From an uncultured Bacilli bacterium (GTDB lineage Bacteria; Bacillota_I; Bacilli_A; RF39; UBA660), in contig CANQHQ010000001.1 in NCBI GenBank assembly GCA_947623825.1, positions 17,736 through 81,735 on the forward strand: a stretch of 64,000 nucleotides of DNA, given 5' to 3'. Below, piece after piece: positions 2,188-16,940 of the stretch. Below the pieces are notes generated by a model. The model saw nothing but the letters and a program-made list of their open reading frames with translations. It was not told the DNA's origin and did not search any database. A program made the position numbers and the translations under genes. Position 1 is the stretch's first letter. The number at the start of each line of letters is the position of its first letter.

Positions 2188-3825
2188 TTAATGGGATTCT
2201 TTCTTTTCATTTAATTGTTGATATTTCAAGACCGTTTCTTTTTTATAGTAGTCTAGTGTTCCTTCGGGTAAAATTAAAGTTCGTTCCACTCCTAATCGGT
2301 CGACAAACTCTGGATTATGAGAAACTAAAATCATCGTCCCGGGAAAGGTTTTTAGATTTTCTGCCATGACTCGTTGTGTTTCAGGGTCCAAGTGATTGGT
2401 TGGTTCATCTAGAATGAGGAGATTCGCTTTCTGAAGCGTTAATTTCGCAAGGGACAATCGAGATCGTTCTCCTGGAGAAAGGACCGACGCTTTCTTGTAA
2501 AAGTCTTCCTTTGTAAAAAGAAATTTTCCAAGAACTCCTCGTGCTTGTTGTTCACTTAAATCAAATTCTTTGAGATTTTCCATTAGATTTTTATCTAGGT
2601 CGATGAGTTCGTGTTCTTGGGCATAATATCCAATATCTGTTTTGGGACCTAAAATAATTTTTCCAGAATCTGGAGTTAGAATTCCAACAATCAATTTTAA
2701 TAGAGTGGTTTTACCAACTCCATTTTCACCAACAATTAAAAACTTTTCTCCACGAGGAATTTCTAAGTGAATTTTATACAGTAAATTTCGTTTCGAATTT
2801 TTATCATACTTAAAACAAAGATCTTCGATTCTAAGAGGAAAAGAGGTGCTTTCTCTTCCTTGATGAAGTTGAATCGTAGCTGTTTTTTTCTCTTTTTCAA
2901 CGACGACGGCATGTTCTTCTAATCTTGCCAATTTTTTCTGACGATCTTTCGCAATCTTTGCTTTTTTCTCGTTTCCATGAATATATTTATCGATAATTTT
3001 TTGGAGATGTTCTCTTTCTTTTTCTTGTAATTCTGCTTCTTTTTTTAATCTTGTTTTTCTTTCTACTAAGATTTTTTCAAATTGTTGATAATTCCCATGA
3101 AAAAGTTCCATCGTATGATGATTTTTATCTAAGTATAACGTATCTTCTGTCACAGCATTTAAGAAGGCAATGTCGTGAGAAATAATGAGAACCGTTCCTT
3201 CATATTTTTTGAGATAATCGATGACAAAGTCTTTGGTATTTTGATCTAAATGGTTTGTGGGTTCGTCTAATAAAAGCATTTCGGGCATCGAGTACAATAG
3301 TCTTAGAAACGCGATTTTAGATTTTTGTCCACCTGACAAGGTACAAAGAGGTTGATCGAGCATTTCATTCTCTAACTGCATTCCTGAAATGAGTTTCAAT
3401 AATTCTTCTTCTGCCTGATATGGTTTATAATAATCTAGTTCCATTTGGTATTGATTTACTTTATTTAAAAGAGTATTGATTTCTTTTTCATTTGAACTCA
3501 TAGCTGCTTTTTCGTAACATTCTTGTATCTTTTTTTCTAAAGAAGCAATCGGTCGACCTGTGAGTAAATAGTCTAATACTGTCATATCCGTAGAGGGGAT
3601 TTCGTCTGTAATTACTTGTGGGAGCCAAGAAATTCTTGTCTTCTTAGAAAACGTAATGGTCCCTGAGTCTGGTTCTAATTGATGAAGAAGCATTCGAAAA
3701 AAAGTCGTTTTTCCTGCCCCATTGACACCGATAATACCGATTTTTCTTCCTTCGGGTAATTGGATATTTACATTTTCAAAAATGGTTTCTATTCCAAAAG
3801 AAAAATTCAAATTTTTAATTATCAC
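2188..3825 (-). CDS. ABC-F family ATPase (two nucleotide-binding domains, no transmembrane domain)
   Basis: Two Walker A motifs (GVNGAGKTT and GENGVGKTT). Two ABC signature motifs (LSGGQKSKIAF and LSPGERSRLSLA). A charged coiled-coil linker rich in K/E/Q separates the halves. Length is 545 aa. Confidence 0.85.
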   Translation of the reverse strand: MIIKNLNFSFGIETIFENVNIQLPEGRKIGIIGVNGAGKTTFFRMLLHQLEPDSGTITFSKKTRISWLPQVITDEIPSTDMTVLDYLLTGRPIASLEKKIQECYEKAAMSSNEKEINTLLNKVNQYQMELDYYKPYQAEEELLKLISGMQLENEMLDQPLCTLSGGQKSKIAFLRLLYSMPEMLLLDEPTNHLDQNTKDFVIDYLKKYEGTVLIISHDIAFLNAVTEDTLYLDKNHHTMELFHGNYQQFEKILVERKTRLKKEAELQEKEREHLQKIIDKYIHGNEKKAKIAKDRQKKLARLEEHAVVVEKEKKTATIQLHQGRESTSFPLRIEDLCFKYDKNSKRNLLYKIHLEIPRGEKFLIVGENGVGKTTLLKLIVGILTPDSGKIILGPKTDIGYYAQEHELIDLDKNLMENLKEFDLSEQQARGVLGKFLFTKEDFYKKASVLSPGERSRLSLAKLTLQKANLLILDEPTNHLDPETQRVMAENLKTFPGTMILVSHNPEFVDRLGVERTLILPEGTLDYYKKETVLKYQQLNEKKESH

Positions 3826-4188: not shown

Positions 4189-4779
4189 ATGTCTAATAAA
4201 GAAATATTAGAAAATATAAAAAAATTATCAAAACAAGAAAAAAGAAATTTTTCTTATGATAATTTAGTTGAAATAATGAGTAAGTTAGAAACGAATGAAA
4301 TTATTGAATTAAGCAATATTATTGGCTATCCAGTATTTACAAGATTATGTATGGGAGCATTAAAACATAAATTTGTTTTATTACAAGATGGAGCAGCAGC
4401 TATTATCGTAAATGAAAAGGGACAAATTTTACTTCAATCAAGAGCAGATAATGATAAATGGGGACTTCCTGGTGGGTGTCAAGAATTGGGAGAAAGATTG
4501 GAAGATACGATAATTCGTGAAGTGAAGGAAGAAACAAATTTAGATATAACAGAGGATAATTTAGAGTTGATAGCCATTGTTTCTGGTAATAGTAGAAGAA
4601 ATGAATATCCAAATGGAGATGTCGTTATTAATAATACAGCTTTATATTGTGTTAAAAATTATTCAGGAACATTAAAATGGGATGAGGAATCCAAAAATAT
4701 GAAATTTTTTGATTTAGATAATTTACCTATAAATCAAAATGATCCGGATTTAATTGCAATTTATAGAAAATCAATATAA
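4189..4779 (+). CDS. NUDIX hydrolase
   Basis: Nudix box GLPGGCQELGERLEDTIIREVKEETNL matches GX5EX7REUXEEXGU. RBS GGAGGG lies upstream. Confidence 0.8.
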   Translation: MSNKEILENIKKLSKQEKRNFSYDNLVEIMSKLETNEIIELSNIIGYPVFTRLCMGALKHKFVLLQDGAAAIIVNEKGQILLQSRADNDKWGLPGGCQELGERLEDTIIREVKEETNLDITEDNLELIAIVSGNSRRNEYPNGDVVINNTALYCVKNYSGTLKWDEESKNMKFFDLDNLPINQNDPDLIAIYRKSI

Positions 4780-5329: not shown

Positions 5330-5848
5330 TTATTCCGATTTCTTTTTAGGAAATAGTTTTTTTACCAATTTTCGAATGCTTCGATCATTTTCTGAATCAA
5401 TGACCTCTTTTGGTAGTTGTATTTTTAGATTTCCTTGTTTCATCCATAAAACATCTCTTAACGAGTAAATTTTAAAATCTAATAATTCACATTGGGTTAC
5501 CATTTCTGAATGTTTTCTTCGTTCTTGCATGGACATTGCATTATATTTTTTGGCAATCGTATTTTTTTCATGGGCAATCGTTTGAGCCAATTTGATGAAT
5601 TCCTCATCCGATAAATCTTTGACCTCGTTATAGTCTACCATCCAATCGATTTGGCGGAAGAATTCGATTTCTTTCTCGTCTTCAAATTTGATAAACTCAT
5701 ACCGATTTCTATCATCAATGATGACTACTTCTCCACCGAACACTTTCATCATAATTGATGCGGGAATTGGTAAATCAGATTGATTGAGATGCGCAATATC
5801 ATTTTTTTGAACATACACTGCTTGATCCATTACTATTTTCATAAACAA
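5330..5848 (-). CDS. hypothetical protein (172 aa)
   Basis: ORF only. No recognisable motifs. Confidence 0.5.
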   Translation of the reverse strand: MFMKIVMDQAVYVQKNDIAHLNQSDLPIPASIMMKVFGGEVVIIDDRNRYEFIKFEDEKEIEFFRQIDWMVDYNEVKDLSDEEFIKLAQTIAHEKNTIAKKYNAMSMQERRKHSEMVTQCELLDFKIYSLRDVLWMKQGNLKIQLPKEVIDSENDRSIRKLVKKLFPKKKSE

Positions 5849-5955
5849 ACCTCCGTTGTTTCTATATTATACCATAACATTCCCCAATTGTCTTTTTTTC
5901 ATGGAGAAAGAAAAAAGACTAGCAAGTTCCGTCTTACCAGTCTTTCGTAAACTTA

Positions 5956-6031
5956 TGGTGGGCTGTTAGGGATTCGAACCCTAGACCCACTGATTAAGAG
6001 TCAGTTGCTCTACCAACTGAGCTAACAGCCC
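5956..6031 (-). tRNA. tRNA-Lys (anticodon CTT)
   Basis: Reverse complement GGGCTGTTAGCTCAGTTGGTAGAGCAACTGACTCTTAATCAGTGGGTCTAGGGTTCGAATCCCTAACAGCCCACCA. Anticodon loop is CTCTTAA, T-loop is TTCGAAT, and CCA is encoded. Confidence 0.85.
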
Positions 6032-6462
6032 ATAAATTTGATTTACTCGTTTAGTATAGCATAAAAACAAAAAAAAGAAAATAGTATTTTTAATTTTTTG
6101 GCTACTTTCGTAGTTGGACTTCTCCCCTTCTCCCAACTATATTATAACCCATCTCTAATTTTATATTTTGATGCAAAGAGTTTAGACTCGTACCATTTTT
6201 TCTATCATTATACAAAATATTTTATCCTTATAACTCCATTTACTCATATAAAACCTCGTTTCTATGTCCAAGAAACGGAATCATCATAATATAGAGTTGT
6301 TTTTATATGTTTTATGTTACTAAATTACATCTATCACTCAAAAGCAAGCGGAAGAAGTTGTGTCTAAAATTCTATTAAATAATAAAAGAACTGTGATATT
6401 AGAAAATGAAATTTCAACAGTCCTTTTATGATATCTTGAATCTATCTTAATCGTGTTGGTGA

Positions 6463-7323: not shown

Positions 7324-7992
7324 CTAACCCTCATATTGAATGACGATTTTAGCTATATCCATAATCGTTTGCTTATCGGTTATATTTGTTTGAAGAATGA
7401 TTTTTTGATTCGTATTGATAAATTTTATAAAAATTACCCCGTCATAATCTACAATATATAGATTGCTATTATCTATTGTAGATAATTTACACTCTTGGAA
7501 TAGAGAGTCAAAAAGAGAAATGTTAGATAAATACAAATGCAAAAATTTAGTTGAGTCATCCGTATATGAATAACTACCTAAATAGATTTCGTTGGAATCA
7601 TCATATAGAACTTGTTCCTTTTGTATTTCAAAAATCTCTAAATCGTCAAAATAACGAAATATAGAAAACTTATCCATAAGGTTATCATATTTTGACTTAT
7701 AACTACGAATTGTAGAACTGTCATCCTGAATCTCAATTTTATTTATCATTATATTGTCTCGTTTGGATGGTTCATCGATAGGATTCGAGTTCAAATTATT
7801 TATAGAATTTGTATGAAGACTTAAAAATATCGTAATAACTAGTAAAAATAAACAGCTAACTGCAAGTGTCCTTTTCAAATACTTCTTTCTTTGGTTACTT
7901 CTATCCATTCGCTTTCTTATTTGCTTATAATTACCATCGATATCCACATACTGTTCTAATATCGATTTTATTTGTTGCTTGTTACTTGGCAT
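7324..7992 (-). CDS. probable anti-sigma factor (single-pass membrane protein)
   Basis: It overlaps the upstream ECF sigma gene by 11 nt. It has an N-terminal cytoplasmic segment, one TM helix (LAVSCLFLLVITIFLSL) and an extracytoplasmic domain. Confidence 0.55.
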   Translation of the reverse strand: MPSNKQQIKSILEQYVDIDGNYKQIRKRMDRSNQRKKYLKRTLAVSCLFLLVITIFLSLHTNSINNLNSNPIDEPSKRDNIMINKIEIQDDSSTIRSYKSKYDNLMDKFSIFRYFDDLEIFEIQKEQVLYDDSNEIYLGSYSYTDDSTKFLHLYLSNISLFDSLFQECKLSTIDNSNLYIVDYDGVIFIKFINTNQKIILQTNITDKQTIMDIAKIVIQYEG

Positions 7993-8524
7993 CTTGTTCT
8001 CCTTTCTGTAATTTTCTATAATCGTTTAGAGTACGATGTATATAACTTTTTATTGTTGACTCATTTATATTCAGTTCGTTAGATATTTCTTTTGTAGTCA
8101 TATCAAAGTAGAAATATAAATAAAATGTTTTAATTATAATTTGTTTTTGTTTTAAAAGATATTTCATAAAATCTTTCAGTTCGTACTTTTGAATTATATC
8201 TATTTCCAAATTATAATCTGATGGAACGCATTCTAATAGTTCTACATCTTCCTTATCATTATCTTTCATGATAAAAGATAAAAAGAGATGTTTCCATTTG
8301 TATTTTTTTCTGTAGTAATCTTTTATTTTTTTATGTGCTATCCCAATTAAATAGGAATCATCATGATCAATTTTTTTACCCTTAATATAAGCACGGTAGT
8401 AGTCAAGATACGTCTCTTGTAGTAAATCATGAACATCTTCCATACTAGTACAATTACTAATGATATATTTCAAAACGTTTTTAACTGTATCTTTATATAT
8501 CAATTCAAATCTTTCTTCCGTCAT
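7982..8524 (-). CDS. ECF-type sigma-70 family RNA polymerase sigma factor
   Basis: Region 2-like segment DLLQETYLDYYRAY. Region 4 helix-turn-helix TKEISNELNINESTIKSYIHRTL. Confidence 0.75.
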   Translation of the reverse strand: MTEERFELIYKDTVKNVLKYIISNCTSMEDVHDLLQETYLDYYRAYIKGKKIDHDDSYLIGIAHKKIKDYYRKKYKWKHLFLSFIMKDNDKEDVELLECVPSDYNLEIDIIQKYELKDFMKYLLKQKQIIIKTFYLYFYFDMTTKEISNELNINESTIKSYIHRTLNDYRKLQKGEQDAK

Positions 8525-8771: not shown

Positions 8772-10256
8772 CTAAACTTTTTCATTTGGATTTGGATGAT
8801 TCATATACAATCCTTTTTTCAATTGTTTGTGTCCACCTACAGAGAATTTGGCTTTCGATTCTTCTTTTGGTTTAATTAAGTGGACATGGAACCGTTTTAA
8901 TGTGGCTCCTGATAAAGAAGGATCTCCAAAGCGAAGACATAAAGCCCCTCCTGAGATATCGTACTGAAGCGATAAATCTAACCATATATTTTGCAAATCG
9001 TTCCACATGGCATCCGTAATTTGTTCTTTTTGATATACAGGATAACGTGCGACGATTAAGAACTGCTCCTCGACTCCTTCGTAAGGAAACCGATTTTTGG
9101 AAATGTACCAGTAGTCTGTGACTCTCATAATCTCTTGGTCGATATATTTTGGATCTAATGGGTCTTTTCCTTGGGCTTCCATATCTAACATGATATCTAA
9201 TTGTTTTTGTTCTCGGGCGTTTGGTGGATAAATGTATTGATAAGCATTCATATCCCCTAGAATAGGACTGGTAGACTCTATCTTTTTCTTTTCTTCTAAT
9301 ATCGGAATCGTTTGAACTCCATGCTTTTCCGCAAGGGCGTGAGAACGTTTACTCCAATTTCTTTCTGGGTGATCTTCTAGATAATATACCTGTTTTACTC
9401 CCTTATCGATTAAGACTTTCATACATTCGTCACAAGGAAATAAGGTTGTCCAAATCGGAGTATCTAAGGTTTTCACTTCTCCTAATTTTTTTAATAGATT
9501 CATTTCTGCGTGTTCTGTCGTTGCGTAGTAGAGTTCGGTACGATTTTCTATGTCATATTTTGAAAGACTAAAATCGGTTTGATTGGTTCCAAAAAACCAA
9601 GTTCCATTCCAAAAACATCCGGCAGCGACAGGACATACCCAGTCAGTAGAATCTTCTAGATGATGAATTAACATAGGAATTGGTTCAGGCATCTCTTCCT
9701 GGTGACCGATTCTTTTACACATCTCTATCACGGCTTGTTTTACTTTTTCACTGACTTCTTTAAATTTTTTTCCTTTTCCGGAAATCATAATTTTTCGAAT
9801 TTTATCAGAGGTAGATGTCTCTGACTGTCTTGGTAAAATCGCCACTCTACCACAAATTTCTTCTAGTTTTTTTATGTCTTCATCAGAATAATTATCCTTA
9901 ATGGCAACCAAAACATCGGGTCTCACTAATCGAATGAGTCCCCATTTTGGTTCGTCTACTTCTTTCACGACGACACTATTGGCAATATTTAATAACTTGA
10001 TAAATTCATAGCGCTCTTCTTCGGGGATAATCGGTCGTGTTTCCCCTTTTCTCTTTCTGATTTTTTCATCACTATCCATCGCTACAATCAAATAGTCGCA
10101 TAATTTTCTCGCTTCCAAAATATAGCGAAGATGACCAATATGAAATAAATCCCAGGAACCCTGAACCAAACCAATGGTTTTTTCTTCCCTTCTTGCCTTT
10201 TCCAACTCTTTCAAGAAGTCTTCTTTCATTTTTTGTTGTTCTTCTTTTGCGATCAT
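8772..10256 (-). CDS. three-domain fusion of a TagD/RfaE-II-like cytidylyltransferase, a dCMP-deaminase-like zinc deaminase and a HIT-like domain
   Basis: Residues 26-150 carry GSWDLFHIGHLRYILEARKLCDYLIVAMDSDE (HxGH nucleotidyltransferase motif). This is collinear with TagD [34 protein letters not shown]. Residues about 200-330 carry HAEMN ... PCDECMKVLIDKGVKQVYY (CDA/dCMP deaminase zinc motifs). The C-terminus carries ...SGATLKRFHVHLIKP, which aligns to the Hint QSVYHVHLHVL histidine-triad region with the third His absent. The start codon lies 2 nt after the stop of the upstream ThyA-like gene. Confidence 0.7.
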   Translation of the reverse strand: MIAKEEQQKMKEDFLKELEKARREEKTIGLVQGSWDLFHIGHLRYILEARKLCDYLIVAMDSDEKIRKRKGETRPIIPEEERYEFIKLLNIANSVVVKEVDEPKWGLIRLVRPDVLVAIKDNYSDEDIKKLEEICGRVAILPRQSETSTSDKIRKIMISGKGKKFKEVSEKVKQAVIEMCKRIGHQEEMPEPIPMLIHHLEDSTDWVCPVAAGCFWNGTWFFGTNQTDFSLSKYDIENRTELYYATTEHAEMNLLKKLGEVKTLDTPIWTTLFPCDECMKVLIDKGVKQVYYLEDHPERNWSKRSHALAEKHGVQTIPILEEKKKIESTSPILGDMNAYQYIYPPNAREQKQLDIMLDMEAQGKDPLDPKYIDQEIMRVTDYWYISKNRFPYEGVEEQFLIVARYPVYQKEQITDAMWNDLQNIWLDLSLQYDISGGALCLRFGDPSLSGATLKRFHVHLIKPKEESKAKFSVGGHKQLKKGLYMNHPNPNEKV

Positions 10257-10258
10257 TT

Positions 10259-11176
10259 TTAAATACCTACGGGGATATCTTTGATTTTCTCGTGTGGATG
10301 ATAATCGCTGAGTTCAAAATCATCCTTACGATAATCCGAGATTCTTTCATGTTTTTTTACGAGTTTTAATGTTGGAAAAGGTCTACTTTCTCTCGATAAG
10401 ATTTCTTCTACCCAAGGCATTTGATCTTCATAAATATGGGCATCCGATATGAGATGGATAAATTCTTGTGGTTCTAAATCTAATACTTCGGACATCGCAA
10501 TGAGTAAGGCAGAATATTGAACCCAATTGGTTACACAACCGACTAGGACATCACAACTTCTCTGAAACATAACCATACTTAATTTTCCATTTAGAATTCG
10601 AAAATGCACCCATCCATGACAAGGCGCCACCACTACTTTTTGTTGATGGTCGATGTTTCGAATTGTGTACTGTGGAATCCATGGAGAAATAAAATGGGTT
10701 TTTAATTCTGGTCTTTCTTTCATTTGCTTCGTGATTTCTTCAAACTGATTGAATCCTTGTCCATCTACCGTAGGGAAATTGGCAAAAGCAGCACCATAAG
10801 AACCGGGTCCTAAATCTCCTGTTTCCAATCCTCTTTTGGCGCATTTTTTTTCGGTCACCCAAGCCTTCCACCAACGGCAACCAAACTCTTGTAATTCTTG
10901 TTGGGTTCTAGCACCATTAATGAAAGCACATAACTCTCCAATTCCCGCTTTCCAAAAACCAGAAATATCTCTTTCGGTGATAAAAGGAACCCCATTTTCT
11001 AATAAATTGAAACGAAGAGGAGTCGCTCCCATATAGTCGATGGTCCGTACTTCTTGCCCGTTTTTATCGACCATCGGAGAAGGTCCCCAAGTTCCCTTTT
11101 CTAGAATTTCTCGAATTAAATTTTTGTACTGTTCGTCCGGTGTTCGCTCTTCGTAAGGTGTATATTTGTTTTCCAT
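10259..11176 (-). CDS. thymidylate synthase (ThyA) family protein, divergent and 305 aa long
   Basis: Collinear with E. coli ThyA across its length. Shared motifs are RFNL, GDLGP, APCHGWVHF (catalytic PCH Cys), FQRSCDV, SDAHIY and C-terminal RPFPTLKL ... DYHPH. The folate-binding region between the RFNL and GDLGP motifs is replaced and lengthened. Confidence 0.8.
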   Translation of the reverse strand: MENKYTPYEERTPDEQYKNLIREILEKGTWGPSPMVDKNGQEVRTIDYMGATPLRFNLLENGVPFITERDISGFWKAGIGELCAFINGARTQQELQEFGCRWWKAWVTEKKCAKRGLETGDLGPGSYGAAFANFPTVDGQGFNQFEEITKQMKERPELKTHFISPWIPQYTIRNIDHQQKVVVAPCHGWVHFRILNGKLSMVMFQRSCDVLVGCVTNWVQYSALLIAMSEVLDLEPQEFIHLISDAHIYEDQMPWVEEILSRESRPFPTLKLVKKHERISDYRKDDFELSDYHPHEKIKDIPVGI

Positions 11177-11271
11177 AAAAGCCTCCTATTTTATACTTAC
11201 TTTTGTGTTTCTTTCACTCTAACTACCCGTTATTTTAACAGTGTAATTAGGAAAAAACAATTTTGAAACTC

Positions 11272-11811
11272 CTATTCATTTACTTCAAAGTAGTGATTAA
11301 TCGAAGAAAAGTTGTTTACTTTTTTAATCAATTCCTCTTCTTCCCGTAGTTCATTCATATTGACATTTGTTATTTTTTCTACATGTCTTGCCACGTAATC
11401 GAAACTTCCGATTACCAATTTTTCTCCATAGTCAATGGCTGCATAAGTGTTGGTTTGATAAGTTTCTTGATTGGCTTCTTTCTTTACTTCGCGAAAAGAA
11501 TCGATGGAATGAAACCCCGATAGATTTCGTATCGTATTCGAACAGAGTTGATAACAATAGTTAGAATCATCCGTATAGCGTATCGTTTTTAGGGAAAACA
11601 GGCTGTTTTCTTTGTTGACATAGGCATCCATTTCCTCGCACATCTCTTCGGAACTTCTCAATCCTTTTAAAATGTTTAAGAGATTGCTTAAATTTTCTGA
11701 CATACATTTTAAAAAATAGTTTTTTCCGTCAAAATAGACCGGAGAAACAAGGATGGGTCTTTTTCCTATGAGAACGCCCGAGAAGTCATAGATTCCAACC
11801 AATTTTTTCAT
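11272..11811 (-). CDS. hypothetical protein (179 aa), first gene of the ThyA-like / fusion operon
   Basis: Same strand. A 95-nt gap separates it from the ThyA-like gene. No motif recognised. Confidence 0.45.
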   Translation of the reverse strand: MKKLVGIYDFSGVLIGKRPILVSPVYFDGKNYFLKCMSENLSNLLNILKGLRSSEEMCEEMDAYVNKENSLFSLKTIRYTDDSNYCYQLCSNTIRNLSGFHSIDSFREVKKEANQETYQTNTYAAIDYGEKLVIGSFDYVARHVEKITNVNMNELREEEELIKKVNNFSSINHYFEVNE

Positions 11812-11943: not shown

Positions 11944-13170
11944 CTACTTCGTAATTTTTTTTGCTCCTTTGATTCCCTTGACTCCATTCATTTCAGAGAA
12001 TCCTTTTAAGATATTGGATTCAAAAGAATGAACTTTTTCTGTTCGTTTCTTGTAATCTTTAATCCCAATATTAATCATGTCATCTAATAACTCTGAGTAA
12101 TCTTTTCCAATCGGAGACCATAGATAGAAGGAAAGAGATCCTGGGATATTATTGACTTCATTGATGTATACTTTCTTGTTCTCTTTATCAATTAAGAAAT
12201 CAATTCGTACGACTCCCGAAGATTTCAAGGTCTTAAATGCTTTTACGGCGATTTCTTCCACTTCTTCGCGTAAGTTATCTTCTATTTTTGCAGGAACCAC
12301 TCTCGATGCGCTTGCCATTCCTTTACTGGTTCCTTTATATTTTGCTCCTCTTAGTTTTCCTTTGCTTTTTCCATTCCCAATGTATTTGTCTGCATAGGTT
12401 AAAAAAGCGTTTTTCGGAGTTACTTCTTCGATGGCACTGACTTGTTGATTTTCGTAATTTCCTAATACACTAATATTTACTTCCATTAGGTTTTCGACGA
12501 CTTTTTCTACGACGACACGACTGTCATAGGTCACGGCATTTTCTAATCCCTGAATTAATTCTTCTCGATCATGTGCCACGGAAATTCCTACACTACTACC
12601 TAAGGTACATGGCTTGATAATTACTGGGTATTTTAATTTTTCTATTTTCGCGATTACTTCATCGGGATTTTCTTCATAATCTACATCATAAAACCAAGTA
12701 TAAGGAGAAACAGGAATCTTTTCTTGTTCAAAAATCTGTTTCATGAAGATTTTATCCTGTCCTACCACGGCGGCATATACATCGACCCCTACAAATGGAA
12801 TACCAATGGATTGAAGGTATCCTTGTAGTACTCCATCTTCCACATTGGTTCCATGCACAATCGGAAAAGCCATATCTATTTCCGCTACAATCTTACGGAA
12901 TATTCCTTTCTTATTTTCAAGGACAAATTTATCTTTTTTCGCATAGAGAACCACATTTTTACAATATCTTTTGATGAGATCCATATCTTGAAATGTTTCG
13001 ATATCTTTTAATGCTTCTCCTGTATACCATTCTCTATCTTTGGTAATATAGATAGGAATAATCTCGTATTTCTCTCCATCCATTTTATTCATTGCTTGTA
13101 CGGCAGAGATAATGCTCACCTCATGTTCTACACTTTCTCCACCGAAAATTACACCAATTCTAATTTTCAT
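11944..13170 (-). CDS. ddl: D-alanine--D-alanine ligase (ATP-grasp)
   Basis: N-terminal KIRIGVIFGGESVEHEVSIISAVQ is typical of Ddl. It has an ATP-grasp architecture and sits directly downstream of a MurF-like gene. Confidence 0.8.
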   Translation of the reverse strand: MKIRIGVIFGGESVEHEVSIISAVQAMNKMDGEKYEIIPIYITKDREWYTGEALKDIETFQDMDLIKRYCKNVVLYAKKDKFVLENKKGIFRKIVAEIDMAFPIVHGTNVEDGVLQGYLQSIGIPFVGVDVYAAVVGQDKIFMKQIFEQEKIPVSPYTWFYDVDYEENPDEVIAKIEKLKYPVIIKPCTLGSSVGISVAHDREELIQGLENAVTYDSRVVVEKVVENLMEVNISVLGNYENQQVSAIEEVTPKNAFLTYADKYIGNGKSKGKLRGAKYKGTSKGMASASRVVPAKIEDNLREEVEEIAVKAFKTLKSSGVVRIDFLIDKENKKVYINEVNNIPGSLSFYLWSPIGKDYSELLDDMINIGIKDYKKRTEKVHSFESNILKGFSEMNGVKGIKGAKKITK

Positions 13171-13180
13171 TCTTTCACTC

Positions 13181-14764
13181 CTAATCTTTTAAATCGTCAT
13201 CACTTTCAAAAAGCGCATAGATTTTCTTTTTTGTTTCCATTTGTTGTAATAAAGTATATGCGTCGGCTACTTCGTTTACGATATAGATTTTTTCTTTTTC
13301 AAAGCCACTTTCTATTAGACCTTGAAAAACCGACTTTGTACTCTTTTCATTTATCAGTATAACATAATTTGCAACTTTTGCTACCTGTGTTCCAAAAATA
13401 TTGTTTAACTCTTCTGTCTTTTCCCCTAGATTTTGCATTCCGGTGGTGATCACAACTTTGATTCCTGGCATGAGTTCTAATACATCTAAGGCATCTTTCG
13501 CTCCTAGAGGATTGGAACGATGGGTATTGTTCATTTGATACATATAACCAAAATCATGCATATCTAAATGATTTTCTAACGGACGTAAATCCTCGATCAC
13601 AGGAAGAATTTCTTCTACTTCAAGCCCTAAAATCCGGGCCAAAGCGATGACCGATAGAATATGATAAATGTTATGTTTTCCTAATAATTTCGTTCTTACT
13701 TTGTATTTTTGATTGGTATCTTTTTCCCAAACAGAGAAAGAAGTTCCTTCTCTACTATATTGAATTTCCTGCGCTAGATAATCCGCTGGTTGTTCTAGAG
13801 AAATCCAAATTTTTTGACAAGCGATTTCTCCTGGATACTCTACCTGTTCCCAATCATCTTTATTGAGAATAGCCACTCCTTCTTTTGGAAGAGATTCGAT
13901 TAATTCAAACAAAGCATTGACCGTGTTGTCTTTGGTTCCAAAAGAAGTAATTTGGTTAATTTCAATGGTTGTTAAAATGGCAAATTGGGGATGAATTAAA
14001 TCACAAATACTTTGAACAACACCTGGTTTATAGGCACCCATCTCCGCAATCAAAAGTTCTTCTTCGGGATCTAGATAACTGTTTACGGAAGAGACCATTC
14101 CATGTAAAGTATTGACATTTTTTGGCGTCGATTGACAGATATACTTTTTCTTTAGAACTTCCTCTAAAATGTATTTTGTACTTGTTTTTCCATAAGTACC
14201 TGTGATTCCTACCACTTTTAAGTCCTTCATTTTTTCAAGTTTTACTTGGGCTTTTTGCCATTCGTATCTTTCAATTGTTCTTTCTACTGGTCGATTGAGA
14301 CGATAACAAAACCAAACTATGAAATAGTTAAAATACGTGATGATGGTTTCCAAAGTCAACCATAAATATCCATCTTTATAATCCGTTATGTAAATCATGA
14401 TGGGGAGAAAATAACAAAGGGCAATCGTACCAATCAACCTTTTCATTTTTTTCGTTAAAATCAATTTCTTTGGTTGATATTCTTTATATAAAGAGGTAAT
14501 TCGTAATAATTCAAAAAAACAACCGATATCTCCTAGTATGACAAGGAAAACAGAAATTTCATCTTCGAGAAAATAAGCTAGTAGAAAGAGAAAAAATGAA
14601 AAAAACTCTAGGGAAAAGAAAACGATTCTTTTATTTTCTTTTATCCATATAAAATATTTTCCATCTTCGTTGTAAACTTTTTTCTGAAACATTTCTAACA
14701 TAAATTCTGTTTTAACGATTACGAGAAAAACAACACAAATAAGGGATAAGATTACTAAATACAT
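13181..14764 (-). CDS. Mur ligase family protein (MurF-like) fused to an N-terminal polytopic membrane domain of about 170 aa
   Basis: Mur ligase P-loop VVGITGTYGKTSTKYILEEVL with central and C-terminal Mur ligase domains, next to ddl. Residues 1-170 contain several hydrophobic helices. Only a 12-nt gap separates it from the upstream hydrolase gene, which supports the long ORF. Confidence 0.65.
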   Translation of the reverse strand: MYLVILSLICVVFLVIVKTEFMLEMFQKKVYNEDGKYFIWIKENKRIVFFSLEFFSFFLFLLAYFLEDEISVFLVILGDIGCFFELLRITSLYKEYQPKKLILTKKMKRLIGTIALCYFLPIMIYITDYKDGYLWLTLETIITYFNYFIVWFCYRLNRPVERTIERYEWQKAQVKLEKMKDLKVVGITGTYGKTSTKYILEEVLKKKYICQSTPKNVNTLHGMVSSVNSYLDPEEELLIAEMGAYKPGVVQSICDLIHPQFAILTTIEINQITSFGTKDNTVNALFELIESLPKEGVAILNKDDWEQVEYPGEIACQKIWISLEQPADYLAQEIQYSREGTSFSVWEKDTNQKYKVRTKLLGKHNIYHILSVIALARILGLEVEEILPVIEDLRPLENHLDMHDFGYMYQMNNTHRSNPLGAKDALDVLELMPGIKVVITTGMQNLGEKTEELNNIFGTQVAKVANYVILINEKSTKSVFQGLIESGFEKEKIYIVNEVADAYTLLQQMETKKKIYALFESDDDLKD

Positions 14765-14776
14765 AGGTCCCTCCGA

Positions 14777-15493
14777 TTAAATAAAATTTTTAAGGATGGC
14801 AACTACCTGTGGTAAGGCTTCTAAATAAGCATAATGGGTATATCCTTCCAATTCAATGAGTGCCCCATCTTTTAATAATTTTTCTAATTTTTTGGCGTCT
14901 TCGATAGGAGCGGCTTCATCTAACGTTCCCCAAATCAAGAGTGTCGGACATTCGATTTTTTGGGCATATTCTGACAAATCTTGATTGACTACTCGAACTA
15001 AAATATTTCTCATCATGGGAGTTGCTTGGCGGTAATCGGTCGATCCGATATATTTTTTGGCATACTCTCCTATTTTTTTCATACCGGGTAATTTCTTCAC
15101 TGATTTAAAAACAGATTCTTTGAAAGATTTCCGGTCGCTTCTCACACAAGGACTCCCGAATAACACCAACTTCTCTACTGGATTTTTCGCCGCATAACCG
15201 ATGGCTACCCGTCCTCCAAAAGAATGTCCCATCACGATTGGCTTTTTAATTTTTAATTGATCTAACAATTCTTCTAATACGGTCACATAATCTTCGATTG
15301 CCCATACTTCTGTTGGTTCTTCAGAATCACCAAAACCCGGAAAATCAAGAATGGTTGTCCGGTAATTGGGTAATTCGTTCGCTAGAGGAACCATCATCGC
15401 TATATTTTGACCCCATCCGTGAAGTAATACTATATCGTTTCCTTCGCCATATTGTTCATAATGAATTGATAATCCTTTGATCTTTGCTTCCAT
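14777..15493 (-). CDS. alpha/beta-fold hydrolase
   Basis: GHSFGG nucleophile-elbow motif and HGWG oxyanion region. Confidence 0.7.
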   Translation of the reverse strand: MEAKIKGLSIHYEQYGEGNDIVLLHGWGQNIAMMVPLANELPNYRTTILDFPGFGDSEEPTEVWAIEDYVTVLEELLDQLKIKKPIVMGHSFGGRVAIGYAAKNPVEKLVLFGSPCVRSDRKSFKESVFKSVKKLPGMKKIGEYAKKYIGSTDYRQATPMMRNILVRVVNQDLSEYAQKIECPTLLIWGTLDEAAPIEDAKKLEKLLKDGALIELEGYTHYAYLEALPQVVAILKNFI

Positions 15494-15554
15494 AGTTTCA
15501 CCAAGTTCATTATATCATTTCTCTTTCCTTTCAAACAAATAGATTCCGTTTTCT

Positions 15555-16094
15555 TTACTCTTTTTGTCTTGTTTTTTTGTTATTTTCTTCCTTTATGTAA
15601 ATCGTTTGATACTGTCTTTCTATTTTTCCTTCTAATTCTAAAAGATAAAGATAGTATTCTATCTGTGAAAATCTTACTTTTTTTGTTCCCTGACTTCCTT
15701 TTTCGGCACACGAAGTTAGGAAGGAATAGAGAACGTTTTCCGGTGGCTCTTTTCTTTGATACGGTTTTTTTCTTTCTTCGAAGTATTCTATCGCCCAACG
15801 AGTACTACATTTTTCAATTGCGTAGCGAAAAAGACTATTTCCTTCTAGAAAATGATGGTGGAAATAACTGAGATAGGCTTGTAAATCTAGGCTTTCTTTT
15901 AGTTCTTCTTTCATTTTTTGTTGTTCTTCTTCGGAAAGGTGATATCTACATGCATCGATCAGTTCTTGCTTTTTTTCCATTTCGATGGGAAATGTTTTTT
16001 TTCTCTTTTCTTCCTGGGTTGCCAAATCCAATTCTTTATAAATTCCAATTTCGTACTTTTTTCTGATTCTTTCAAATTTTTTTTCGAGATCCAT
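15555..16094 (-). CDS. hypothetical protein (179 aa)
   Basis: ORF only. Confidence 0.4.
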   Translation of the reverse strand: MDLEKKFERIRKKYEIGIYKELDLATQEEKRKKTFPIEMEKKQELIDACRYHLSEEEQQKMKEELKESLDLQAYLSYFHHHFLEGNSLFRYAIEKCSTRWAIEYFEERKKPYQRKEPPENVLYSFLTSCAEKGSQGTKKVRFSQIEYYLYLLELEGKIERQYQTIYIKEENNKKTRQKE

Positions 16095-16181
16095 ACTATC
16101 ACCAAATTCAACTTATCATTTCTTTTCTTATCGGTCAATTTCAATTCAAAAAAATGTAAAAAAAGCAGGAACTTCCTGCTT

Positions 16182-16940
16182 TCATATTTGGTTTAAAATT
16201 TCTCTAAATCGTCTTTCTTTTTCGGAATCTTTGGAAGAGTCGATCCATGTAACGACTCCTTCTCTTTCCTCTTGCACTAGATTCTTCTCTTTTAGTCTAC
16301 GTTCTAATTCTTTGGCAATTCCTTCTCCTCCATCGAAGAATGTCACAGGTCCCAGTTCTCGCCGAATTGCTTCTTTGATGAGGGGATAATGGGTACAACC
16401 TAATACAACGTTTTCTATTTTTCTTTCTTTATAAGGACTTAGATATTGCGTTAATAGTTTTTCTTGTTCTTCTTTCTGATTATCTTCGATGGCTTTCGCG
16501 AGGAAAGGACATTCTTGAAGATAAGTTCGGTGATTGTCATATTTGTGAAACAGGTTTTGAAATCTTTCACTTTCTAACGTACCTGGTGTTGCCATGACTA
16601 AGGTGTTTTTCTCTCTAGCGAAATCATGAACCATTTTATAGGCTGGTTCAATTCCTATGAAAATGAAATCTGGATATTGTTTTCTTATTTCGTCAATGGC
16701 TAAAGCGGTCGCCGTATTACAGGCAAAAACAATGGCTTTACATCCTTGTTTCATCAAAAAAGAAACAATTTCACTGACATACTCTAATACTTCTTTCTGG
16801 CTTTTTTCTCCGTAAGGATTATGCCTCGAATCACTATAATAAATATAATCCTCTTGTGGTAATCGTTTCCTTATTTCTTTTAGAACCGTAATTCCACCAA
16901 TTCCAGAGTCCAATATCCCAATTGGATGATTTTTCAACAT
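16182..16940 (-). CDS. murI: glutamate racemase
   Basis: IGILDSGIGGITV, FACNTATA and GCTHYP are motifs of the Asp/Glu racemase family. Confidence 0.85.
   Translation of the reverse strand: MLKNHPIGILDSGIGGITVLKEIRKRLPQEDYIYYSDSRHNPYGEKSQKEVLEYVSEIVSFLMKQGCKAIVFACNTATALAIDEIRKQYPDFIFIGIEPAYKMVHDFAREKNTLVMATPGTLESERFQNLFHKYDNHRTYLQECPFLAKAIEDNQKEEQEKLLTQYLSPYKERKIENVVLGCTHYPLIKEAIRRELGPVTFFDGGEGIAKELERRLKEKNLVQEEREGVVTWIDSSKDSEKERRFREILNQI

Follow-up and report, generated by a model that had tools for sequence, protein, structure and literature searches.

The DNA analysed here is a 64,000-nt stretch (the window; all coordinates are positions within it) from contig CANQHQ010000001.1 of an uncultured Bacilli bacterium. 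On its minus strand lie two adjacent genes, one for a thymidylate synthase (TS) of a distinct ThyA clade and the other for a 494-aa protein that joins a nucleotidyltransferase (NT), a deoxycytidine monophosphate (dCMP)-type deaminase and a HIT domain. In this pair a thymidylate module of four components, which is widespread, appears in condensed and fused form; its parts are separable and have been re-fused in several ways in other genomes. The module very probably serves the synthesis of thymidylate (dTMP). There is about an even chance that a nucleotide conjugate, made by the NT and split by the HIT domain, lies on the main path. More doubtfully, the whole conversion of cytosine to uracil to thymine may take place on a pyrophosphate-linked, masked deoxynucleotide, bypassing free deoxyuridine mono- and triphosphate (dUMP and dUTP).

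The thyA gene (10259..11176, minus strand, 305 aa) is followed immediately by the gene for the tri-domain protein (8772..10256, minus strand). An earlier note on this DNA had listed three minus-strand open reading frames (ORFs) of 179, 305 and 494 aa and a gap of 2 nt between the thyA stop codon and the start of the fusion gene. All three ORFs are present where it placed them, and the junction (10254..10261, minus strand) does read TAA-AA-ATG, which suggests that the two genes may be translationally coupled. A scan for promoters and terminators returned no more sites than shuffled sequence.

The three-domain architecture proposed in that note has held up, on the strength of Pfam matches, of relatives and of fold matches to an AlphaFold2 model. 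The NT domain (aa 1-160; 9777..10256, minus strand) has the cytidylyltransferase/RfaE-II fold, with the motifs H39-I-G-H42 and R143-Q-S-E-T-S-T-S. Over aa 31-144 it is recognised by CTP_transf_like (E 4e-17), and it shows the Rossmann-like fold, HxGH and ISTT-type motif that define PF01467. Its best specific model, RfaE domain II (TIGR02199), gives 100 bits against a cutoff of 181.5, and TIGR01518 gives 34 bits against 165, so that neither cutoff is reached. The dCMP-deaminase-type zinc domain (aa ~191-320; 9297..9686, minus strand) carries H249-A-E251 and P274-C-D-E-C278 and matches dCMP_cyt_deam_1 (PF00383) over aa 237-293 (E 2e-8), again far below the specific model (TIGR02571, 33 bits against a cutoff of 219). 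The FHIGH, HAE and PCDEC motifs are invariant in 87 relatives. Classical dCMP deaminases have an allosteric motif, G(Y/W)N(A/G), for the dCTP/dTTP site (PMC12088426); in the window protein the motif is instead G-T-N-Q, and in relatives it is G-[TSA]-N-Q. The domain also has additional invariant basic residues (R239, K280, K285, K303 and R304).

The HIT domain (aa ~336-494; 8772..9251, minus strand) has no Pfam match when the window protein is searched alone, and 14 of 21 relatives match PF01230 (HIT); a family profile aligns to Fhit with E 9e-4. The earlier note had described a HIT motif without its third His. That description was mistaken: it is the first His that is replaced, by an invariant Arg. 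In the HMMER register, R455-F-H457-V-H459-L-I is aligned to Fhit H94-V-H96-V-H98-V-L, and distant stand-alone HIT homologues have HLHAHLI, HLHIHLV or HLHAQII at the same place. The triad is thus incomplete in its first member, and H457, at the nucleophile position, and H459 are retained. N388-R-F-P391 is also conserved.

In the AlphaFold2 model of the 494-aa protein all three folds find matches. The combination of a pLDDT (per-residue confidence) of 91 with a pTM (overall-arrangement score) of only 0.48 predicts three rigid domains on flexible linkers; such models show folds, not ligands. The best structural matches of the deaminase domain are the dCMP deaminases of human (DCTD), PBCV-1 (bi-DCD), S. 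mutans, T4 and S-TIM5 (2w4l, 7fh4, 2hvw, 1vq2 and 4p9c). Catalytic signatures are retained across the family: 100 of 101 NT domains have both HxGH and STS, 100 of 107 deaminases have both H[AS]E and PCxxC, and 117 of 122 HIT domains have the central His.

The 305-aa protein is a full-length match to PF00303 (210 bits, cutoff 24.3), and it scores below the cutoffs of the NF0024xx subfamilies. When 60 module ThyAs are aligned to E. coli TS (E. coli numbering), E58, W80, W83, Y94, C146, H147, Q165, R166, S167 and D169 are conserved, as are N177, H207, Y209 and a C-terminal P-V-[GA]-I. The earlier assignment to the ThyA family, with its catalytic Cys (C146) and its Asn (N177), is therefore upheld. 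The same note had the folate-binding region rebuilt, which the alignment contradicts: because folate and catalytic residues, among them W80, W83 and the C-terminus, are conserved in the 60 relatives, this machinery is not rebuilt, and the phosphate site is altered instead. Of the four arginines of that site (R21, R126', R127' and R166) only R166 is kept. R126' is Lys in 60/60 and R127' is Thr or Ala in 60/60 (Thr in the window protein), and the DRTGTGT loop that bears R21 is longer and variable, with loss of R21. Two insertions bring new invariant residues, one after W83 (KCxKRGL; KCAKRGLE in the window) and one after W133 (IPxYxIR; IPQYTIR in the window). A survey of TS called the four phosphate-binding arginines invariant, with a natural R127G clade as the first exception (PMC6005164).

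An exhaustive ThyA search places these proteins in a separate clade of ~60 clusters at 50% identity; canonical TS, including eukaryotic DHFR-TS, scores only ~120 bits in this search. The clade is recognised by [RK]-T where canonical enzymes have R126-R127, by the missing R21 loop and by both insertions. Module ThyA and the canonical enzymes (those of E. coli, of L. casei and of humans; EC 2.1.1.45) have in common the fold, the catalytic, base, sugar and folate residues, the C-terminal closure, and dihydrofolate reductase (DHFR) as a frequent neighbour. They are 33-37% identical (~120-136 bits) and differ in the loss of R21, Thr/Ala at position 127, Lys at 126 (in this subgroup) and the two insertions, as well as in the near-obligate linkage of the module enzyme to NT, deaminase and HIT genes.

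That linkage is evident in the gut relatives of the window pair. The fusion protein has at least 293 homologues, and a scan with one genome per species found relatives in 60 species; in 60/60 the gene directly upstream encodes this type of ThyA, in tight adjacency throughout. Two lineages are represented, under the depositors' own taxonomic labels. The first consists of gut 'Bacilli' metagenome-assembled genomes (MAGs; GC 23-32%) with the tri-domain fusion, and the second of MAGs labelled Candidatus Saccharibacteria (GC 40-55%), in which the protein is mostly split. The split form, in 33 Saccharibacteria-labelled species, consists of an NT-deaminase (~317 aa) and a separate HIT protein (~153 aa), the latter usually encoded by an overlapping or adjacent gene and in 2 cases 3-4 kb away on the opposite strand. 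A DHFR gene directly follows the fusion in 3/60 species. The nearest relative of the window pair, from a rabbit-gut 'Bacilli' MAG, is 77% identical in the fusion protein and 91% in ThyA. Between the two gut lineages (Saccharibacteria-labelled L029-L064 against L005-L028) the ThyAs have a median identity of 70%, as high as within the Bacilli (71%), which suggests either that the module may have moved horizontally between gut lineages or that some MAGs are mislabelled. Gut and environmental members are 48-51% identical in ThyA.

Distant HIT genes that stand alone came to light when the HIT domain by itself was used for a profile search, and their neighbourhoods contain the four parts as separate genes. 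At locus L066, tmk-folD-glyA lie on one side, thyA and the HIT gene overlap by 16 nt, the genes for the deaminase (279 aa) and the NT (199 aa) converge on them, and the whole cluster adjoins rplK-nusG-secE. At L068 and L190 (Solirubrobacteraceae, GC 68%), an NT-deaminase gene opposes thyA-folA-HIT. The stand-alone deaminases (L066:5515-6354 and L068:2090-2923) carry an N-terminal domain of ~110 aa with the cytidylyltransferase fold, in which PVLHxGY replaces HxGH. This domain may have no enzymatic activity of its own (a pseudo-enzyme) or may serve to dock the separate NT, and its presence in a stand-alone deaminase argues that attachment of an NT-fold unit to the deaminase is the ancestral state. 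The flanks of the two Solirubrobacteraceae loci (L068:6096-7712 and 5459-6088; L190:5044-7439) share a conserved 538-580-aa protein and a ParB-CE protein; the former has a weak thymidylate-synthase-like region and a pterin-binding DUF4346.

The breadth of the coupling was assessed in metagenomes, which were searched with the back-translated ThyA-clade motif GDLGPGSYG only. The 121 motif loci screened comprised 120 metagenome loci and one viral contig, and 116 of them encode a clade ThyA. Partner genes were detected by tblastn with few probes, and the counts that follow are for clade-ThyA loci alone. Among the 38 loci with at least 1.5 kb of flank on both sides of thyA, NT, deaminase and HIT occur together in 29 (HIT in 35, deaminase in 32, NT in 29, DHFR in 24); with at least 3 kb on both sides the corresponding figure is 13 of 16 (HIT 14, deaminase 14, NT 13, DHFR 11). 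The partners lie at median distances from thyA of 20 nt (DHFR), 91 nt (HIT), 632 nt (deaminase) and 1384 nt (NT), and the dominant layout is thyA>(folA>)HIT> <deaminase <NT. GC contents of module loci range from 25 to 75%. Serine hydroxymethyltransferase (SHMT) is encoded beside the module in 26 metagenome loci and thymidylate kinase (Tmk) in 7-8. The parts are fused as NT-deaminase (34 cases), NT-deaminase-HIT (29), DHFR-HIT (3; L074, L133 and L137) and DHFR-ThyA (2). There is also a HIT-ThyA fusion, P0204 (464 aa), whose N-terminal HIT domain has HLHGQ and shares 45% of its residues with the HIT protein of L066. Three loci are exceptions to the coupling (L186, L122 and L134): each has a clade ThyA and several kb of flank and none of the three partners, L122 having DHFR only.

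Because the four components, where they are separate genes, cluster with folA and in many cases also with glyA, dut and tmk, they are read as the cell's route from deoxycytidine nucleotides to dTMP. The underlying logic of a deaminase followed by ThyA is simple: the base of a deoxynucleotide passes from C to U to T. The earlier note had offered, as a deflating alternative, simply an unusual housekeeping dTMP-synthesis pair, to be recognised by conservation throughout the clade and by a ThyA that is the genome's only TS. The dTMP part of that alternative largely stands, in view of the adjacent ThyA in 60/60 species and the co-clustering with folA, glyA, dut and tmk. The pair is hardly ordinary, since its ThyA belongs to a separate clade and comes with two extra enzymes. 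No second thyA was matched elsewhere in the 64-kb window.

What the extra enzymes might do is suggested by their superfamilies. Cytidylyltransferase-fold enzymes form NMP-O-P-X bonds (NMP, nucleoside monophosphate) from a nucleoside triphosphate (NTP) and a phosphorylated acceptor, as in CDP-glycerol, ADP-heptose, NAD and FAD. HIT enzymes break NMP-X pyrophosphate bonds through a histidine-NMP intermediate. Since a maker and a breaker of such bonds are both retained with a deaminase and ThyA, in many phyla and at GC contents of 25-75%, deamination on a conjugate would be the simplest account. In this scheme, the NT would join a deoxycytidine nucleotide to a partner X through a pyrophosphate bond, either by converting dCTP and a phospho-acceptor to dCDP-X and pyrophosphate (PPi) or, in the manner of NMNAT, by combining an NTP with dCMP to give Np2dC. 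The deaminase would then turn cytosine into uracil on the conjugate, and His457 of the HIT domain would attack the alpha-phosphate to release the monophosphate. ThyA would methylate the uracil with methylene-tetrahydrofolate, and DHFR would recycle the folate. If X-P were recycled as well, the net chemistry would equal that of the Dcd + Dut + ThyA route. In the masked variant the deaminase, and then ThyA with its opened phosphate pocket, would both act on the conjugate, and the HIT domain would act last and free dTMP.

Several observations fit the participation of a conjugate. The NT is always encoded with the deaminase or fused to it, and the degenerate dCTP/dTTP allosteric motif of the deaminase is consistent with action on a conjugate. 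Cytidylyltransferase-fold enzymes dimerise, and for that reason the NT-fold domain on the deaminase is likely to be a docking partner for the NT. It is known that substrates with di- and triphosphate tails can be taken by enzymes of the DCTD fold (PMC12088426). The HIT gene lies genetically on the thyA/folA side, which argues that its product acts either immediately ahead of ThyA or immediately following it. Throughout the clade R21 and R127 have been lost, and this loss, the insertions and the two-way coupling point to ThyA itself acting on the conjugate: if free dUMP were its substrate, any thyA or thyX would do, and the coupling would not need to be so strict. We therefore lean slightly towards HIT cleavage after ThyA, with release of dTMP, over cleavage before it, with release of free dUMP.

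A number of points weigh against the conjugate scheme, and several of them against its masked form. ThyA scores 142 bits against TIGR03284, above the equivalog cutoff of 108 for ordinary TS, and a conserved Arg in one of its insertions, R173, could restore the phosphate site. A natural R127G enzyme is still active on dUMP (PMC6005164). Pfam-confirmed dUTPase genes lie beside the module in ~20/120 loci, which fits a ThyA that uses free dUMP; a further idea, that masking is needed because dUTPase is absent, was ruled out by these same genes. A detour through two enzymes looks wasteful next to a single dCTP pyrophosphatase. The DHFR-HIT fusions imply that fusion order need not follow reaction order, and they weaken its use as a guide. 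Finally, the strength of the coupling is drawn from counts around clade ThyA alone.

In a rival explanation, possible though less likely, an ordinary dCMP deaminase and ThyA would act on free dCMP and dUMP and the NT and HIT domains would be accessory. The accessory domains could be nucleotide-sensing regulators that replace the classical dCTP/dTTP allosteric site, or they could turn dCTP into dCMP (through dCDP-X) ahead of the deaminase. The rival draws on the TIGR03284 score and the retention of every catalytic residue in ThyA, on the dUTPase, Tmk, SHMT and DHFR neighbours, and on the H-x-G-Y in the NT-fold domain of stand-alone deaminases, which may be non-catalytic. The G-[TSA]-N-Q motif also favours it, because a deaminase with a degenerate allosteric site would need some other regulatory device. 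However, the NT and HIT domains keep their catalytic signatures across phyla (100/101 and 117/122), as enzymes would, and the HIT gene is encoded with thyA/folA rather than with the NT. Nor does this reading explain why the trio is coupled to a single ThyA clade, one whose phosphate site is remodelled.

It is less likely still, and on balance improbable, that the deaminase converts dCTP to dUTP, that the HIT domain acts as a dUTP pyrophosphatase feeding ThyA, and that the NT is regulatory or unrelated. Deaminases of the DCTD fold that act on dCTP do exist, namely PBCV-1 bi-DCD and CDADC1 (PMC12088426). The extra invariant basic residues of the deaminase domain and the tight linkage of HIT to thyA would agree with this alternative; against it, a bona fide dUTPase is encoded beside the module in ~20 loci, and a strictly conserved catalytic NT would have no explanation. 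Furthermore, no HIT enzyme is known to be a dNTP pyrophosphatase.

The earlier note had also raised the possibility of a modified pyrimidine nucleotide or a nucleotide conjugate. The second half of this suggestion survives as the best mechanistic lead. The first half, a module whose product is a modified pyrimidine nucleotide or nucleoside natural product rather than dTMP, is very unlikely, in spite of the precedent of ThyA homologues that make modified pyrimidines (T4, MilA and BcmA) and of a remodelled phosphate site and NT/HIT partners that would be compatible with it. The pyrimidine hydroxymethylases (T4 gp42 and MilA) have Asp in place of N177 (Asp179, which has its role with the cytosine substrate) and form no dihydrofolate, whereas Asn177 is invariant in module ThyA, and Y94 and the closing C-terminus are also conserved. 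DHFR directly adjoins module ThyA in many loci, arguing that dihydrofolate is formed and hence that the reaction is a reductive methylation. Tmk, SHMT and FolD are also neighbours, and the contexts are core housekeeping genes, with no recurring glycosyltransferase, kinase or other tailoring genes near the module.

The last proposal in that note, a nucleotide-depleting anti-phage system, is all but refuted by context. In its favour are weak local hits of the zinc motif to models of dCTP deaminases from phage defence: NF041025 gives 36 bits where its cutoff is 400, and the PADLOC dCTPase hit covers 54 residues of a 630-position model. The kinase domain found at the N-terminus of the kinase-deaminase defence enzymes is missing, the module is surrounded by housekeeping genes rather than by a defence island, PADLOC and PHROGs give generic domain matches only, and the module is always coupled to ThyA, often with DHFR, and conserved across whole lineages. 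A phage origin was considered and rejected as well, as a scan of IMG/VR found no relative of the fusion protein. The one viral contig that matches the ThyA-clade motif, L189 (IMGVR_UViG_3300009506_001314; 11 kb, ThyA at 2762-3646), has no NT, deaminase, HIT or DHFR partner for its ThyA.

The individual parts belong to known superfamilies, and none of them can be placed at the level of a characterised enzyme except ThyA, which itself lacks the full set of four phosphate-binding arginines. The deaminase shares the zinc-deaminase fold, HAE and PCxxC with the dCMP deaminases (ComEB, DCTD and T4 Cd), PBCV-1 bi-DCD and CDADC1. It differs from them in scoring far below the ComEB equivalog cutoff, in its degenerate allosteric motif, in having no second zinc site and in its constant association with an NT-fold domain, either fused or as a partner. 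The proposed chemistry has the same net outcome as the Dcd/Dut (or bifunctional Dcd-Dut) route, that is, dCTP to dUMP, NH3 and PPi, feeding ThyA; that route uses entirely different folds and passes through dUTP, whereas the module would use a pyrophosphate-linked conjugate. The NT falls below every equivalog cutoff of the cytidylyltransferase-fold enzymes (RfaE-II/HldC, TagD, CCT/ECT, Fom1 CyTase and NMNAT), and none of that fold was found to be linked to thymidylate synthesis in the literature searched. Within the HIT superfamily (Fhit Ap3A hydrolase, Hint, the M. tuberculosis Ap4A phosphorylase Rv2613c and the GalT branch), the subgroup to which the window protein belongs is set apart by Arg in place of the first His of the triad. 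Its relatives vary between HxHxH and HxHxQ, and the gene lies with thyA/folA or is fused to NT-deaminase, DHFR or ThyA. That thymidylate-cycle enzymes can be fused has a precedent in the bifunctional DHFR-TS of protozoa and plants, with partners that differ from those of the module fusions (NT-deaminase-HIT, HIT-ThyA and DHFR-HIT).

A literature search, in a library that does not cover all journals, turned up no paper that describes the module. In public databases the proteins bear generic names ('adenylyltransferase/cytidyltransferase family protein', 'dCMP deaminase' and 'Ap4A HIT family hydrolase'). Both agree with the view in the earlier note that the fusion and its ThyA paralog are not a described system.

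The surroundings of the pair in the window contribute little. The 179-aa ORF (11272..11811, minus strand), between ddl and thyA, had been taken as the leader of a three-gene operon, and that operon has to be given up. The ORF has no match in Pfam, NCBIfam, PHROG or PADLOC and no tblastn homologue in 64 related loci, the closest relatives having other neighbours at this position, and its exact sequence is absent from a collection of 15 billion proteins. Having neither family match nor homologue, it is excluded from the module and, judged by sequence comparison, is an apparently unconserved orphan. In the window the genes around the module include those for Ddl, for a Mur ligase and for an ECF sigma factor, as well as a glutamate-racemase-like gene. 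The cell-wall cluster upstream (11944-16940, minus strand) encodes a D-Ala-D-Ala ligase, the Mur ligase, an alpha/beta hydrolase and an Asp/Glu racemase; the Mur ligase (527 aa) has a hydrophobic N-terminus of unusual length. Directly downstream of the fusion gene is the ECF-type sigma factor (Sigma70_r2/r4; 7982-8524, minus strand). Its gene overlaps by 11 nt that of a 222-aa ORF (within 7324-8524, minus strand) with a predicted membrane segment and no family match, and the two may be a sigma/anti-sigma pair. A NUDIX protein is encoded at 4189-4779 on the plus strand.

Few pathways have been studied as thoroughly as thymidylate synthesis, which is also a major target of drugs. The results indicate that many bacteria, among them Patescibacteria/Saccharibacteria, reduced gut Bacilli and soil Solirubrobacteraceae, use a separate ThyA clade that is tied genetically to two further enzymes, neither of which has a known role in this pathway. 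If these enzymes are on the main path, they would constitute an unrecognised way to dUMP or dTMP, the metabolism reconstructed for uncultured bacteria that scavenge nucleotides would have to be revised, and the existence of a natural TS without arginines that were held to be invariant would be accounted for; the enzymes would also offer lineage-specific targets. A conjugate route, if real, would be the larger departure from the known pathway. The masked route, if true, would be a second widespread route to thymidylate and would include the first TS of primary metabolism with a substrate other than dUMP. The natural fusions and fissions of the module are a ready set of constructs for its biochemistry.

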